A stretch of 5,103 nt of DNA from a virus (Duplodnaviria; Heunggongvirae; Uroviricota; Caudoviricetes). A model generated the notes under the pieces. It saw nothing but the letters and a program-made list of their open reading frames with translations. It was not told the DNA's origin and made no database searches. The stretch lies in IMG/VR virus record IMGVR_UViG_2602041905_000009, one strand, 5' to 3'. Of this stretch, positions 1-5,103 are shown piece by piece (the stretch's first letter is position 1; each line of letters begins with the position of its first letter). Made by a program: the position numbers and the translations under genes.

Positions 1-1172
1 GCGCTGAAGCTGTAGCGGAACGGCGCGCCATCATCCGGCATCACCACATTACTGCGGTTATAGGTCCACACCTTATCCGACGGTCGGTCCTGCACGAATG
101 TCAGCGTCTGCCCGTTCCATACCGGCATACAGCGCATCGCCGAGCAAAAATCACTGAGCACATCCCACGCCTTGCGCTGTGTGGTCAGGTACGCATTACA
201 GGTGATGCGCGGCTCCGTGCCGCCAAAGCCGTCCGGCACTGACTGGTCGCAATTCTGGCCGATGACATACAGCGCCCATTTATCCACATCTGCCGCACCA
301 AGACGTTTCCCCATGCCGTAGCGCGGATGGGTCAGCATATCCCACAGACACCAGGCCATGTTGTTGCTGTATGCTGGCTTAAACGTTCCGTCCCAGATAC
401 CGCTGTATTGCCGCGTCTGCGGGTTATAGTTCGACGGCACCTGCAGAATGCGCCCGCGAAGATGATAATTACGGCTCACCTGCTGGCTGCCGAACTGTTC
501 CGAGTCCACCTGCACGCCGACCAGTGCCGTGTTCGGGTAGCACTGTTTCACATCGATGATTTCGGTGTATGACGACCAGAGCGTTTTGTTCTGCAGCTGG
601 TCTGTGGTGCTGTCCGGCGTCATTCTGCGCATCCGGATATTAAACGGGCGCGGCGGCAGGTTATCCACCACCACCGAGGCCAGATACTGCGAGGTGGTTT
701 TGCCCTTAATGGTGATGTCTTTTTCCGTCACCCAGCCACCGTTACGCTGGATCTGAACCAGCAGGCGGACTTCCGACGGATTCCTGTCCCCCTTTGAGGT
801 GGTTTCCACCAGTGCCTGCACACCGAAGGTAAAGCGCAGACGGTCGATGTTTGCCGACGTGATGGTCCGGGTGATCGGCGTGTCATATTTCACTTCCGTA
901 CCCAGCACCGTCCCGGAGCCGGAGGATTCAAATCCCTCCGGCGGTGTCTGCTCCTGCTCACCTGCCCGGAACACCACCGTGACACCGGATATATTGGTAT
1001 TCCCCTCACTGTCCAGCACCGGCGTACTGTTCAGCAGCACGCTTTTTAATCCGTCCACCGGACCTTCAACCGGCCCTTCGCTGATGGCATCGATCACACT
1101 CAGCAGCTGCGTGGACTTCAGGTTGTCCCTCGCTTCGCGCGGGGTATGCCCCTTACTGCTTCCTTTACCCAT
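1..1172 (-). CDS. J: Tail tip attachment protein J (central tail fibre / host specificity protein), N-terminal ~390 codons; 3' end runs off the window start. Copy A.
   Basis: Minus-strand ATG at 1172..1170 translates to MGKGSSKGHTPREARDNLKSTQLLSVIDAIS..., matching lambda gpJ N-terminus from recall. Frame stays open to position 1; hand translation of 59..3 gives NRSNVVMPDDGAPFRYSFSA, also gpJ-like. Absent from the ORF track only because no stop codon lies inside the window. Confidence 0.9.
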   Translation of the reverse strand, partial: MGKGSSKGHTPREARDNLKSTQLLSVIDAISEGPVEGPVDGLKSVLLNSTPVLDSEGNTNISGVTVVFRAGEQEQTPPEGFESSGSGTVLGTEVKYDTPITRTITSANIDRLRFTFGVQALVETTSKGDRNPSEVRLLVQIQRNGGWVTEKDITIKGKTTSQYLASVVVDNLPPRPFNIRMRRMTPDSTTDQLQNKTLWSSYTEIIDVKQCYPNTALVGVQVDSEQFGSQQVSRNYHLRGRILQVPSNYNPQTRQYSGIWDGTFKPAYSNNMAWCLWDMLTHPRYGMGKRLGAADVDKWALYVIGQNCDQSVPDGFGGTEPRITCNAYLTTQRKAWDVLSDFCSAMRCMPVWNGQTLTFVQDRPSDKVWTYNRSNVVMPDDGAPFRYSFS

Positions 1173-1214
1173 TCCTCACACTCCATAAACAACAAAGCCG
1201 CCCAAAAGGCGGCT
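499..1214. repeat. Direct repeat, copy A of the J 5' region plus upstream hairpin; pairs with 1657..2373 (copy B) at roughly 95% nucleotide identity (hand-estimated)
   Basis: Visual alignment of 499..1214 against 1657..2373: about 35 mismatches over about 700 nt, with a cluster of differences about 40..80 nt inside the J 5' end. The plus-strand antisense track ORFs 556..756 / 1715..1909 and 799..1188 / 1958..2347 are near-identical pairs, reflecting this repeat. Confidence 0.9.
1196..1214 (-). terminator. GC-rich stem-loop (7-bp stem agccgcc / ggcggct, 5-nt loop) followed on the minus strand by TTGTTGTTTAT; candidate intrinsic terminator for the upstream lipoprotein gene, located 22 nt upstream of J copy A start
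   Basis: Perfect inverted repeat read directly from the sequence; U-rich tract follows on the minus-strand transcript; a homologous hairpin sits at the same place upstream of J copy B (2354..2373). Confidence 0.5.
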
Positions 1215-1238
1215 CATGAGTTACGACAGGATTAACTA

Positions 1239-1577
1239 TTATTTACATGCATTAACACTATCAGCAAAAATTTTTGGCGTTAATGCTGGTACACGTTCAT
1301 AAAGAGTAAAACTACTGCCATTTCCTGCTTTTTTGATATCAAGCACAACATCATATCCCCCCATAGCCTGTGGAACTAAAAGGCTTACCCCATTCTCAAT
1401 AGGAAGGGATGTTATAGGTGTTCCATTACCAGCCCATTGTCTGGATATGCAGCCTGACAATTCATCAATATTTTTTAATGAATTACCTTCCATTACAGGT
1501 TTTCCGGATTTTACGTAATCCAAAGATTTACATCCTGTTAAGGCAATAATCGTGCAGAATAAAATCGTTTTGTTCAT
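1239..1577 (-). CDS. Small predicted lipoprotein (112 aa precursor), unknown family; AT-rich moron-like gene
   Basis: ORF with ATG at 1577..1575 and TAA stop at 1241..1239. N-terminus MNKTILFCTIIALTGC has a basic n-region, hydrophobic core and lipobox L-T-G-C (signal peptidase II type), with Cys16 as predicted lipidation site and Lys at +2. Two further Cys in the mature part (..SGCISRQ.. and C-terminal ..NACK). Strongly AT-rich compared with flanking tail genes. The track ORF 1239..1589 begins at an upstream TTG; the ATG at 1577 is the more likely start. Confidence 0.6.
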   Translation of the reverse strand: MNKTILFCTIIALTGCKSLDYVKSGKPVMEGNSLKNIDELSGCISRQWAGNGTPITSLPIENGVSLLVPQAMGGYDVVLDIKKAGNGSSFTLYERVPALTPKIFADSVNACK

Positions 1578-1646
1578 ATAGCTAACCAATAGAATAATTA
1601 TCAGTGTTCGATATAAATATTAAATTAGTTAGAACATGAGTAAAAT
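1578..1646 (-). promoter_or_regulatory. AT-rich upstream region of the lipoprotein gene with a candidate -10 element (GATAAT, minus strand, original coordinates 1597..1602); truncated by the assembly gap
   Basis: Sequence inspection only; -10-like hexamer about 19 nt upstream of the ATG, no convincing -35 and no strong Shine-Dalgarno. The region is cut off at the N run, so the true promoter may lie beyond it. Confidence 0.25.
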
Positions 1647-1656
1647 NNNNNNNNNN
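1647..1656. other. Assembly/scaffold gap (10 x N)
   Basis: Literal run of n characters in the sequence. Confidence 0.99.
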
Positions 1657-2331
1657 CTCCGAGTCCACCTGTACGCCGACCAGTGCCGTGTTCGGGTAGC
1701 ACTGTTTCACATCGATGATTTCGGTGTATGACGACCAGAGCGTTTTGTTCTGCAACTGGTCTGTGGTGCTGTCCGGCGTCATCCTGCGCATCCGGATATT
1801 AAACGGGCGCGGCGGCAGGTTATCCACCACCACCGAGGCCAGATACTGCGACGTGGTTTTGCCCTTAATGGTGATGTCTTTTTCCGTCACCCAGCCACCG
1901 TTACGTTGAATCTGAACCAGCAGGCGGACTTCCGATGGATTCCTGTCCCCCTTTGAGGTGGTTTCCACCAGTGCCTGCACGCCGAAAGTAAAACGCAGAC
2001 GGTCAATGTTTGCCGACGTGATGGTCCGGGTGATCGGCGTGTCATATTTCACTTCTGTACCGAGCACCGTCTCGGAGCCGGAGGATTCAAATCCCTCCGG
2101 CGGAGTCTGCTCCTGCTCACCGGCCCGGAACACCACCGTGACGCCGAATATATTGGTATTCCCCTCACTGTCCAGCACCGGCGTACTGTTCAGCAGCACG
2201 CTTTTTAATCCATCCACCGGACCTTCAACCGGCCCTTCGCTGATGGCGTCTATCACGCTCAGCATCTGGGATGATTTCAGGTTGTCCTTCGCTTCGCGCG
2301 GGGTATGCCCCTTACTGCTGCCTTTACCCAT
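1657..2331 (-). CDS. J: Tail tip attachment protein J, N-terminal 225 codons, copy B; interrupted by the assembly gap at its 3' side
   Basis: ATG at 2331..2329; translation MGKGSSKGHTPREAKDNLKSSQMLSVIDAISEGPVEGPVDGLKSVLLNSTPVLD... matches lambda gpJ from recall. The track ORF 1582..2331 is a read-through across the N run into unrelated AT-rich sequence and is not a real single gene. Confidence 0.9.
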
Positions 2332-2353
2332 TCCTCATGCTCCATAAACGATA

Positions 2354-2373
2354 AAACCGCCCGGAGGCGGTTT
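2354..2373 (-). terminator. Conserved stem-loop in the I-J intergenic region (8-bp stem aaaccgcc / ggcggttt, 4-nt loop); possible attenuator/terminator or mRNA-stabilising hairpin
   Basis: Perfect inverted repeat read from the sequence; on the minus-strand transcript it is followed by a U-rich stretch (UUUUAUCGUUUAU) and then the J Shine-Dalgarno (GGAG) and start codon. Confidence 0.45.
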
Positions 2374-2391
2374 CACATAAAACATTTTGCA

Positions 2392-3063
2392 TCAGCGACC
2401 AATCACCACAACCTGACCACCATCCCCTTCGTCTGCCGTGCTGATCTCCTGAGAAACCACGCGTGACCCCACGCGCATTTCACCGTACAGAACCGGCAGA
2501 ACATTGCCCTGGGCAACCATGTTATCCAGTGAGGAGAAATAGGTGTTCTGTTTGCCGTTATCCGTTGTCTGTGTACGGGGAGTTCTGGCTTTCGGTGCCA
2601 GCATCTGCGCCACACCACCGAGCACCATACTGGCACCGAGAGAAAACAGGATGCCGGTCATACCACCGGCCCCAATGGCTGCCCCCCATGCTGCAAGGGT
2701 GGCTCCGGCGGTAAAGAATGATCCGGCAATGGCGGCAGCCCCCAGGACAATCTGGAATACGCCACCTGACTTGGCCCCGGCGACTCTGGGAACAATATGA
2801 ATCACAGCGCCATCAGGCAGAGTCTCATGTAACTGCGCCGTTAACCCGGACGTGCTGACGTCCCGCCCGGCAATCCGTACCTGATACCAGCCGTCGCTCA
2901 GTTTCTGACGAAACACCGGGAGCTGTGTGGCCAGTGCGCGGATGGCTTCAGCCCCCGTTTTCACACGAAGGTCGATGCGGCGGCCAAATCGTTGTAAATC
3001 CCCGTAAAGGCAGATGCGCGCCATGCCCGGTGACGCCAGAGGGAGTGTGTGCGTCGCTGCCAT
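2392..3063 (-). CDS. I: Tail tip assembly protein I (223 aa)
   Basis: Complete ORF; translation MAATHTLPLASPGMARICLYGDLQRFGRRIDLRVKTG... ending ...GGQVVVIGR is essentially lambda gpI from recall. Its start lies inside the 3' end of K in another frame. Confidence 0.92.
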   Translation of the reverse strand: MAATHTLPLASPGMARICLYGDLQRFGRRIDLRVKTGAEAIRALATQLPVFRQKLSDGWYQVRIAGRDVSTSGLTAQLHETLPDGAVIHIVPRVAGAKSGGVFQIVLGAAAIAGSFFTAGATLAAWGAAIGAGGMTGILFSLGASMVLGGVAQMLAPKARTPRTQTTDNGKQNTYFSSLDNMVAQGNVLPVLYGEMRVGSRVVSQEISTADEGDGGQVVVIGR

Positions 3064-3704
3064 TTGTCGGTATACCTCTCTCGTTTACTCAGTTGTTCAG
3101 GAATATGGTGCAGCAGCTCGCCGTCACCACAGTAAATAGCGGCATGATTCGGCACCGATGAACCAAAGCAGCACAGCAGCACATCGCCCGGCTGCGCCGC
3201 TGACAACGGCACCTGATACAGCCCTGTGGCCTCCAGATTATCAAGATAGAGATTCTGGCCGTTACGCCACCAGTCATCCTCACGATGAAAGTCCGGCATC
3301 TCAATCCCCGCCAGATGGTAAGCGTCCCGGAACAGCGTGTAACAGTCCGTCACCCCGTGCTCAAAGCGCCGCCCGGTGAGATGCGGCACACAGCGGAACT
3401 TATGAATCGCCCCCCGGCAGACCAGCCACCACGGCAAATCACTCTGCACCTGCAGCCGCCGGTCGGCCTCACTCAGCCAGGGCAGACCACCGGGATGACT
3501 GTGGACCAGCGCCACAATCTCACCCTGCATCTCTGCCTGCAGCCAGTCCTCCGGAGCCATCCGGAAATACGCCTCCGGCTCACCGGAGATATTCACGCAG
3601 GGAAAATATCTTTCCCCCTCCGGCGCTCTCACCACGAAGCCGCACGACTCCGCTGGCGCACATCGCCGGGCATGCGCCAGAATCGCTGATTCTGTCTCTG
3701 TCAT
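2961..3704 (-). CDS. K: Tail tip assembly protein K (247 aa as longest ORF), with MPN/JAMM-like and NlpC/P60-like peptidase motifs
   Basis: Translation MTETESAILAHARRCAPAESCGFVV... matches lambda gpK from recall. It contains an H-x-H-x7-S-x2-D motif (HSHPGGLPWLSEAD) typical of JAMM/MPN metalloenzymes and a downstream Cys/His arrangement (..DCYTLFRDAY.. ..NHAAIY..) consistent with NlpC/P60. An internal ATG at 3560 would give a 199-aa product; the ATG at 3704, 5 nt after the L stop, is preferred because it includes the conserved N-terminal region. Confidence 0.88.
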   Translation of the reverse strand: MTETESAILAHARRCAPAESCGFVVRAPEGERYFPCVNISGEPEAYFRMAPEDWLQAEMQGEIVALVHSHPGGLPWLSEADRRLQVQSDLPWWLVCRGAIHKFRCVPHLTGRRFEHGVTDCYTLFRDAYHLAGIEMPDFHREDDWWRNGQNLYLDNLEATGLYQVPLSAAQPGDVLLCCFGSSVPNHAAIYCGDGELLHHIPEQLSKRERYTDKWQRRTHSLWRHRAWRASAFTGIYNDLAAASTFV

Positions 3705-3709
3705 GGGAT

Positions 3710-4408
3710 TTACTGCGAAAGTTTGTTAATGGAAAGGAAGCCGCCAAAGTTGCCGACGTTATTGCGAAACTTACAGCCGCTCAGGCATTTGCTGCATTTA
3801 TCCTTCGTGATATCGGAAGTCGGCTGATCATATTCATCCGCGACCGCCGGACCGTGATAACCGCACTCATCACCGCGATAGGTCCAGGTGCAGGTATTAG
3901 CCAGCATGATGCGCCCCGGAAAAACGGCACCATCCGTTTCCGTCGGTGTGGACAGTACAAAGGAGGCACTGACCGCACTCAGTTCGCTGCACTGCTCGAT
4001 GCGCCAGCGGCTGATCACCTCCTGCTCCGGATCGGCGTCGCTGTTTCCGTTGACGAAGTTCACCGCATCCAGAAAACGGGCGTAAACCTTACGCCTGACC
4101 ACCGTTCCGCCGACCAGACTCTGCAGATCTTCCACCATCCCGGTGACCATACCGTACAGGTTAGAAACCGTCAGCGTGGGGCGCGTACTGGTGCCTTTGC
4201 CATTCAGTTCAAAACTACTCCCCTGAATGGGATACGGCTGATACTGTCGCCCCTGCCAGGTGACCGGCTCACCTTTTTCGTTCTGCTCATTACAGAAAAA
4301 ATAACGTTCTCCACCGACCTCTGTCAGATCGATTTCCCAGAGCACCACGCTGGCCGACTGCTCCGCACGGGTGCATTCATTCAATGTTTCCTGCCGGATA
4401 TCCTGCAT
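3710..4408 (-). CDS. L: Tail tip protein L (232 aa)
   Basis: Complete ORF; translation MQDIRQETLNECTRAEQSASVVLWEIDLTEVGGERYFFCNEQNEKGEPVTWQGRQYQPYPIQ... matches lambda gpL from recall. Its start codon overlaps the M stop (TGATG on the minus strand). Confidence 0.92.
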   Translation of the reverse strand: MQDIRQETLNECTRAEQSASVVLWEIDLTEVGGERYFFCNEQNEKGEPVTWQGRQYQPYPIQGSSFELNGKGTSTRPTLTVSNLYGMVTGMVEDLQSLVGGTVVRRKVYARFLDAVNFVNGNSDADPEQEVISRWRIEQCSELSAVSASFVLSTPTETDGAVFPGRIMLANTCTWTYRGDECGYHGPAVADEYDQPTSDITKDKCSKCLSGCKFRNNVGNFGGFLSINKLSQ

Positions 4409-4737
4409 CAGTTCACCACCTGTTCAAACTCTGCGCTGAACTCAACACGCAGCATACTGACCCGCGACGACCATTTTGCGCAGGTCACCTTTATCTGCCT
4501 GTAACCATAAGGCGGCGTCCACAGAAAGGCCTTCCAGCCCCCGTGCTCAGCCAGAAACGACTCCAGCGCCGTGGCCTCCTCACGGGAGACAGACAGCGTC
4601 ACGCTGTACGTTTTCAGGTCAGCGTTCAGCCCGGCAGGCGCACGCTGGGAATAGCCATCACCAAAGCGCACCTCCCTGACGGAAGGAGCCGATGTCACAT
4701 CCATCCCGGGTTTCACTTTCCAGCGGAAGGTTTTCAT
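4408..4737 (-). CDS. M: Tail tip protein M (109 aa)
   Basis: Complete ORF; translation MKTFRWKVKPGMDVTSAPSVREVRFGDGYSQRAPAGLNADLKTYSVTLSVSREEATALESF... matches lambda gpM from recall. ATGA overlap with the stop codon of H. Confidence 0.92.
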   Translation of the reverse strand: MKTFRWKVKPGMDVTSAPSVREVRFGDGYSQRAPAGLNADLKTYSVTLSVSREEATALESFLAEHGGWKAFLWTPPYGYRQIKVTCAKWSSRVSMLRVEFSAEFEQVVN

Positions 4738-5103
4738 CGTCCACCTCCGGAGAACAGACCACTATCGCGCATCTGTGCCTGGATTTCATCACGGGCACCC
4801 TTGCGGGCCATGTCATACACCGCCTTCATCATCTGTGGACCTGGCAGACCATTCGTACCGTCGTTCTGAATCACCACGTTGTTGTTCTGCTCAAACCTGA
4901 TACCCTCTGAACGCCGCATTTGCGCCGGACTTCCGGTGCCACCGACATAACCGCCGGTGGCATAGCCGCGCATCAGCCGGTAGAGATTTCCCACGCCAAT
5001 CCGGCTGGTTGCCTCCTTCGTGAAGACAAATTCACCACGGTGAACAATCCCCGCTGGCTCATATTTGCCGCCGGTTCCCGTAAATCCTCCGGTTGCAAAA
5101 TGG
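4734..5103 (-). CDS. H: Tail tape measure protein H, C-terminal ~122 codons (5' end outside the window)
   Basis: Frame is open from the window edge to the TGA at 4736..4734. Hand translation of 5102..4995 gives HFATGGFTGTGGKYEPAGIVHRGEFVFTKEATSRIG, continuous with the track ORF (V)GNLYRLMRGYATGGYVGGTGSPAQMRRSEGIRFEQNNNVVIQNDG..., the lambda gpH C-terminus from recall. The start at 4994 in the track is an internal GTG, not the real start. Confidence 0.9.
   Translation of the reverse strand, partial: HFATGGFTGTGGKYEPAGIVHRGEFVFTKEATSRIGVGNLYRLMRGYATGGYVGGTGSPAQMRRSEGIRFEQNNNVVIQNDGTNGLPGPQMMKAVYDMARKGARDEIQAQMRDSGLFSGGGR

Follow-up and report, generated by a model that had tools for sequence, protein, structure and literature searches.

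The 5,103-nucleotide stretch of DNA analyzed here (hereafter, the window), a Caudoviricetes sequence taken from the IMG/VR virus record IMGVR_UViG_2602041905_000009, is almost certainly a short-read draft scaffold that joins contigs of two lambdoid prophages from one E. coli chromosome, and the adjacency it displays is false. The host is an extraintestinal-type E. coli that carries at least two lambdoid prophages. An initial annotation had noted two partial copies of the tail-tip gene J separated by an assembly gap and offered two explanations: the J genes of two prophages had been joined by scaffolding at a contig break caused by a repeat, or J had undergone a genuine tandem partial duplication. 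The first explanation is borne out by finished genomes, in which the flanks of the gap lie 148–150 kb apart and the break falls at the edge of an exact repeat.

The list of open reading frames (ORFs) places all genes of the window on the minus strand. Read in the direction of the genes, their order is the 3′ end of H, M, L, K, I, the first 675 nt of J, ten Ns, an islet that encodes a lipoprotein, and a second J of 1172 nt (Table 1). The placement of H-M-L-K-I upstream of J, which is seen in the ORFs of the window as well as in annotated finished loci, is the gene order of a siphovirus tail module. The ten Ns constitute the only N run in the window. Ten Ns are a common minimum gap length in scaffolding; our search of the literature on this ten-N convention found nothing relevant. 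We designate the sequences on the two sides of the N run segment A (1–1646; islet and 5′ part of J) and segment B (1657–5103; 3′ part of H, M, L, K, I, and 5′ part of J), and the corresponding prophages and alleles carry the same letters (J_A and J_B, I_A and I_B). The RefSeq annotation of I_B covers 2392–2964 only, which is shorter than the form listed in Table 1.

Table 1 Features of the window.
Feature	Position	Strand	Remarks
J shared block (nt 676–1172, codons 226–390)	1..497	-	Contiguous with allele A; exact repeat of both J alleles, written once
J allele A, first 675 nt (codons 1–225)	498..1172	-	Pfam FNIII-A_GpJ; gpJ annotated in MS8345, N68, and 19AR1321
GC-rich hairpin followed by T-rich tract; I-J intergenic element upstream of J_A start	1195..1215	-	Terminator-like match; RNA fold z-score -2.35
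AT-rich islet (moron) with lipoprotein gene	~1216..1646	-	Lies between I and J of prophage A in real genomes
Lipoprotein CDS, 112 aa, lipobox LTGC	1239..1577	-	Annotated as hypothetical protein between tail assembly protein and gpJ (MS8345, N68, 19AR1321)
10-N run	1647..1656	.	Very probably a scaffold join of two contigs; the 10 bases do not represent a measured gap
J allele B, first 675 nt	1657..2331	-	Contig end cuts at first base that differs from allele A
Hairpin upstream of J_B start	2353..2374	-	Homologous to 1195–1215; RNA fold z-score -3.64
Gene I of prophage B (tail assembly protein), long form overlapping K	2392..3063	-	Pfam Lambda_tail_I 9.7e-29, residues 14–97
Gene K of prophage B (C40 family peptidase)	2961..3704	-	ORF list and RefSeq annotation of matching locus
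Gene L (minor tail protein L)	3710..4408	-	ORF list and RefSeq annotation of matching locus
Gene M (phage tail protein)	4408..4737	-	ORF list and RefSeq annotation of matching locus
Gene H, 3′ end (tape measure protein), runs off window	4734..5103	-	Tape measure CDS at locus 11078–13639 corresponds to window 4734 onwards

Comparison of the two J copies reveals that positions 1657–2331 align without gaps to positions 498–1172 at an offset of 1159, with 645 of 675 nucleotides identical (95.6%). A repeat search of the window recovers the same pair, and a likeness of this length and degree is far beyond chance. These values agree with the initial annotation, which had assigned both 1–1172 and 1657–2331 to the N-terminus of gpJ and put their identity at ~95%. 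Its view that the copies are distinct alleles rather than a duplicated read also holds, in that the 30 nucleotide differences translate into 5 residue changes over the 225 codons common to both. The two copies lie in direct orientation, begin with the same sequence (MGKGSSKGHTPREA), and maintain intact reading frames up to the gap. Their similarity extends ~40 nt upstream of the ATG (to ~1215 and 2374, respectively), crosses a conserved hairpin, and then ends. The 390-amino acid product of 1–1172 contains PF24801 (FNIII-A_GpJ; 9e-42) followed by PF13550 (Phage-tail_3; 2.6e-10). Taken at face value, a scaffold that shows two J copies in this order and direct orientation, both in frame up to the gap, is what would be expected if a single prophage had undergone a local tandem partial duplication to yield H-M-L-K-I-J′ (675 nt)-short unknown sequence-islet-J. 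The location of the two segments in finished genomes, the sequences that adjoin them there, and the position of the break make such a duplication very unlikely.

The two segments were located in complete E. coli genomes. Segment B matches many complete chromosomes with 100.0% BLAST identity, including those of APEC O1, MS8345, PA45B, SF-468, SF-088, ZJ3920, and HS13-1; direct comparison with MS8345 shows 1 mismatch. Segment A is covered over at least 80% of its length in 335 complete genomes, with the best match in strain N68 (99.9%) and an identity of 99.2% in the UTI89/APEC O1 group. In MS8345, segment B occupies 1,208,372–1,211,818 and segment A occupies 1,362,000–1,363,645 on the same strand, 150 kb away, and each lies inside a complete, separately annotated lambdoid tail cluster. 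Prophage B adjoins sitABCD and contains a full-length J_B of 3483 nt. Prophage A has the order K-I-hypothetical protein (the lipoprotein)-J-lom-tail fibre. The spacing between the two segments is 148–150 kb in eight genomes (MS8345, PA45B, ZJ3920, HS13-1, SF-468, SF-088, APEC O1, and EC21GDE043) and ~977 kb in one, MS15052. In N68, the region ~150 kb from segment A contains sit/iuc and plasmid-like genes, and prophage B was not found there. Mapping of both segments to finished assemblies thus assigns the flanks of the N run to different prophages at distant loci in finished close relatives.

The junction displayed by the window was sought with a 300-nt query in which 1497–1646 was joined directly to 1657–1806 without the Ns. 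None of 5426 finished E. coli genomes covers at least 80% of this query at one place; its halves are found separately. A second query that consists of the end of the islet and the 3′ end of gene I is fully covered in 334 finished genomes over a 404-nt span, which indicates that the islet directly abuts gene I in these genomes. The same conclusion is reached outside the finished set. An exact 37-mer from the end of the islet (1610–1646) was found in 10 contigs from IMG/VR and 18 from metagenomes, with no match in the genome-contig collection. The 37-mer is followed in 28 of 28 contigs by AATATTA, the start of the I_A 3′ end. I_A continues normally in 27 of them (26 are identical over the next 40 nt and 1 has a single substitution), and the remaining contig has a deletion inside I. 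Neither the ten-N junction nor an islet beside an internal fragment of J appears in any of the 28 islet-end contigs from IMG/VR and the metagenomes.

These comparisons supply the sequence that actually belongs on each side of the N run. Position 1646 is followed by AATATTACCGCCC..., the 3′ end of I_A, in 28 of 28 public contigs, and the I_A-specific sequence reads ...GGTAATTGGGCGGTAATATT. Position 1657 is preceded by ...GCCGAACTG, which belongs to J_B. The bases that flank the N run therefore do not continue each other's true sequence. We also asked whether the Ns conceal genuine sequence and rejected this: the 10 bases that truly follow 1646 are AATATTACCG, next comes CCCAATTACC..., and the latter mismatches the window from 1657 onwards. 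A tandem duplication is difficult to reconcile with these findings. Its junction is absent from all 5426 finished genomes, gene I rather than a J fragment precedes the islet in the 334 finished genomes and in every one of the 28 other contigs, and the sequence across the junction is itself interrupted by ten Ns. The suggestion in the initial annotation that a tandem duplication, if genuine, would furnish a local substrate for recombination is likewise not supported. Nor would homologous recombination be expected to generate the order shown. Unequal exchange between the two J genes would yield an I_B-J_B 5′-J_A 3′ hybrid accompanied by a 150-kb deletion, or the reciprocal duplication, and would never place the 5′ end of J_B beside the islet.

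The position at which segment B ends provides further evidence for a false join. Base 1657 is a C, and the corresponding base at 498 is a T; this is the first position that separates allele B from allele A. Beyond this point, J_B of MS8345 matches window positions 1–497 at 497 of 497 positions, so the contig end at 1657 falls just where an exact repeat of at least 497 nt begins. J_A of N68 differs from window 1–1646 by 1 base, and from the break onwards it is identical to J_B over 698 nt. Even the J_A and J_B of MS8345 have an exact run of 191 nt in common that starts at the break. The longest exact run within the duplicated 675 nt is 82 nt. The exact repeat beyond the break is longer than the usual k-mers and short reads, which means that the two J copies can be separated up to nt 675 and not beyond. 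If J had truly been truncated, its fragment would have to end at the start of the repeat by coincidence; moreover, relatives carry an intact J_B whose 5′ end is identical to this fragment.

J_A of MS8345 carries 12 differences at window positions 27–306, where the window and J_A of N68 carry a J_B-type tract. These alignments show that J is mosaic among prophages that are related or reside in the same host, with a long tract in which the copies are identical. The suggestion in the initial annotation that the J copies recombine can be retained for exchange between distant prophages only, to which the J_B-type tract at window positions 1–497, inside a J_A gene, points; it does not extend to a local tandem substrate.

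These findings suggest a model for how the scaffold arose. Contig B (1657–5103) very probably stems from the prophage that adjoins sitABCD, of which it covers H-M-L-K-I-J, and contig A (1–1646) very probably represents the islet-J region of a second prophage in which the lipoprotein gene lies between I and J. The J alleles of these prophages differ by ~4.4% over their first 675 nt and are then identical for at least 497 nt (191–698 nt in finished genomes). In an assembly graph, this configuration would create a fork with two allele-specific 5′ branches that enter one collapsed J body. The assembler would write the shared J body once, on branch A, and end branch B at its last allele-specific base. 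Mates of reads near the end of contig B would probably fall in the shared J body within contig A, which would cause the scaffolder to place A after B. We infer that the estimated gap was negative and that no overlap was found, upon which a minimal N run would have been inserted. The outcome would be the order J′(B)-gap-islet-J(A) and the appearance of a tandem partial duplication. The contigs are joined in the order and orientation in which the 5′ end of J_B truly connects to the J body, which argues against a random concatenation of contigs. One could instead imagine a rearrangement private to this strain in which illegitimate recombination fused a 675-nt remnant of J_B to the upstream edge of the islet, either with removal or relocation of ~150 kb or with copying of the J 5′ end. 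The break would then fall on the repeat boundary by accident, and we regard such an event as highly improbable.

The contig end at 1646 lies 4 nt before the stop codon of I_A in all reference loci, and a search for a repeat that would account for it found none at this boundary. Exact runs shared by the N68-type I_A and I_B of the window begin only beyond it, the first of at least 31 nt starting 75 nt past 1646 and the first of more than 100 nt starting 114 nt past 1646. A stretch of 23% GC occupies 1555–1624, just before the end of contig A. We speculate that coverage was lost in this stretch or that the scaffolder trimmed the end of the contig. It is also possible that the strain harbors another allele of I or a third prophage. 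A search with the 3′ 200 nt of I_A retrieved only 257 records at 99% identity or higher, fewer than the 334 islet carriers, and did not detect the I_A allele outside islet-carrying prophages.

The end at 1646 bears on yet another reading, in which the two segments represent a single locus with and without the islet. Both flanks would be shared, and the two branches of the resulting bubble would have been written one after the other; the source could be a mixed culture, a metagenome bin, or two prophages whose I sides are nearly identical too. Both internal contig ends do lie on homology boundaries (1657 where the shared J body begins and 1646 at the edge of the islet, 4 nt from the I stop codon). 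Ends of this kind resemble those of graph branches, and the reading accounts for the end at 1646. However, finished relatives hold both versions in one chromosome, and I, K, L, M, and H of prophages A and B in these relatives are ~94–96% identical rather than identical. An I_B-type gene was found beside the islet in no finished genome, with a chimeric query of islet plus I_B reaching at best 96.8%, and a crossover inside I would leave I_A-type bases beside the islet. We therefore consider this reading improbable, albeit somewhat less so than a tandem duplication or a private fusion. It is likewise an assembly artefact and not a tandem duplication.

Apart from the question of duplication, the islet of prophage A has features of its own. 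Its GC content is 0.34, as compared with 0.57–0.58 in the flanks. The lipoprotein belongs to phrog_914, to which no function is assigned, and matches no family in Pfam or NCBIfam; the only signal in the latter is a sub-threshold, signal-peptide-like match to VirB7. Homologues with 50–62% identity are found in Klebsiella, Enterobacter, Kluyvera, and Jejubacter, and in four Klebsiella-type loci the homologous gene lies between K and I on the strand of the tail genes. A confident AlphaFold model built from 14 sequences (pLDDT 84.1, pTM 0.75) predicts a small α/β fold, the best PDB match of which is weak (Francisella lipoprotein Flpp3; E 6e-3, TM 0.52).

Several consequences follow for the use of this record. 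The scaffold should be split at 1647–1656, and annotation of the 225-codon J ORF that runs into the Ns as a tail-tip gene that is truncated or duplicated should be avoided. No recombination scenario should rest on the adjacency of J′ and the islet. The uncharacterized lipoprotein gene in the tail-tip module is the only item of mild interest and is separate from the matter of duplication. Long identical tracts in prophages are known to fragment assemblies of short reads and to be a mark of recombination among prophages that share a host. The window resembles other repeat-induced misjoins of short-read assemblies in poly-lysogenic E. coli in its N gap, in a contig end at the start of an exact repeat, and in flanks that belong to different prophages. 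It differs from them in the contig end at 1646, for which our search found no coinciding repeat.

The standard lambda H-M-L-K-I-J module is present twice in this poly-lysogenic E. coli. Its likeness to the tail-tip module of lambda extends from gene order to the FNIII-A_GpJ and Phage-tail_3 domains in J, whose lambda counterpart gpJ is the tip attachment (host specificity) protein, and the Lambda_tail_I domain in I, and the RefSeq names agree. Prophage A departs from lambda in having an additional gene, for a lipoprotein, between I and J; lambda is not known to have one at this position. Phages encode lipoproteins and other morons near their receptor-binding genes, as exemplified by lom and bor of lambda, Llp of T5, and Cor of phi80 and N15. 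The islet of prophage A differs from these systems in that its lipoprotein has no sequence-family match to any named protein. It shares with them the character of a short, AT-rich insertion into the late operon that encodes a lipoprotein with a lipobox beside a tail-tip gene, and by analogy we speculate that the islet lipoprotein may have a role in superinfection exclusion.

The stretch of gene J at the left end of the window (positions 1–497) was compared with the corresponding regions of two other loci, L001 (8001–8497) and L002 (7504–8000). Over 497–698 nt, the allele of prophage A in the window, like that of strain N68, matches the allele of prophage B without differences; in the finished E. 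coli relative MS8345, the A allele carries 12 substitutions, located between window positions 27 and 306. This mosaic pattern fits a model in which recombination or gene conversion between the J genes of different prophages would have generated the tract.

In both prophages, the start codon of J is preceded, at a distance of approximately 20 nt, by a GC-rich hairpin that has a T-rich tail. Its stems (GAGCCGCC/GGCGGCTT in prophage A vs AAACCGCC/GGCGGTTT in prophage B) differ by paired changes that preserve the pairing. The element resembles a terminator within the late tail operon, where it separates J from I (or from the moron).

Features of the J-proximal region
Feature	Window position	Strand	Description
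Hairpin, prophage A	1195–1215	minus	GC-rich, T-rich tail
Hairpin, prophage B	2353–2374	minus	GC-rich, T-rich tail
Moron	1216–1646	minus	AT-rich; GC 0.23–0.44
Lipoprotein CDS	1239–1577	minus	112 aa; lipobox LTGC
Gene I, RefSeq in matching genomes	2392–2964	minus	
Gene I, longer ORF	2392–3063	minus	223 aa; start at 3063; 103-nt overlap with K

The lipoprotein encoded by the moron belongs to phrog_914, a family of unknown function that appears to be confined to Enterobacteriaceae. Its gene is flanked by I and J in the window; in Klebsiella-type prophages (L034–L037, 5001–5339), its neighbours are K and I. The AF2 model of the protein is confident, and its sole fold likeness, a weak one, is to Francisella Flpp3. 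A part for the lipoprotein in receptor blocking or superinfection exclusion is speculative.

Contig A, which carries the moron, ends at position 1646, 4 nt before the stop codon of its I allele. This end is preceded by a stretch of 23% GC; a search for an exact repeat coinciding with it identified none. In a low-coverage metagenome contig (L031; PPYF01424523.1, ~541–577, reverse strand), the end of the moron followed by AATATTA runs straight into the interior of gene I (GGTGTTCTGTTTGCC...); either I has lost ~150 nt from its 3′ end here, or the contig is chimeric. The N68 chromosome (NZ_CM165878.1, 2885000–2934000) contains, in the place occupied by prophage B in relatives, a single block of sitABCD, iucABCD-iutA, and the plasmid genes sopA, parB, psiB, ssb, and hok. 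This arrangement points to the integration of part of a ColV-like plasmid or to an assembly error.

RefSeq annotates a shorter gene I than the open reading frame available in the window. Because the Pfam Lambda_tail_I domain begins at residue 14 of the longer frame, the long form is probably the real gene I, as in phage lambda.
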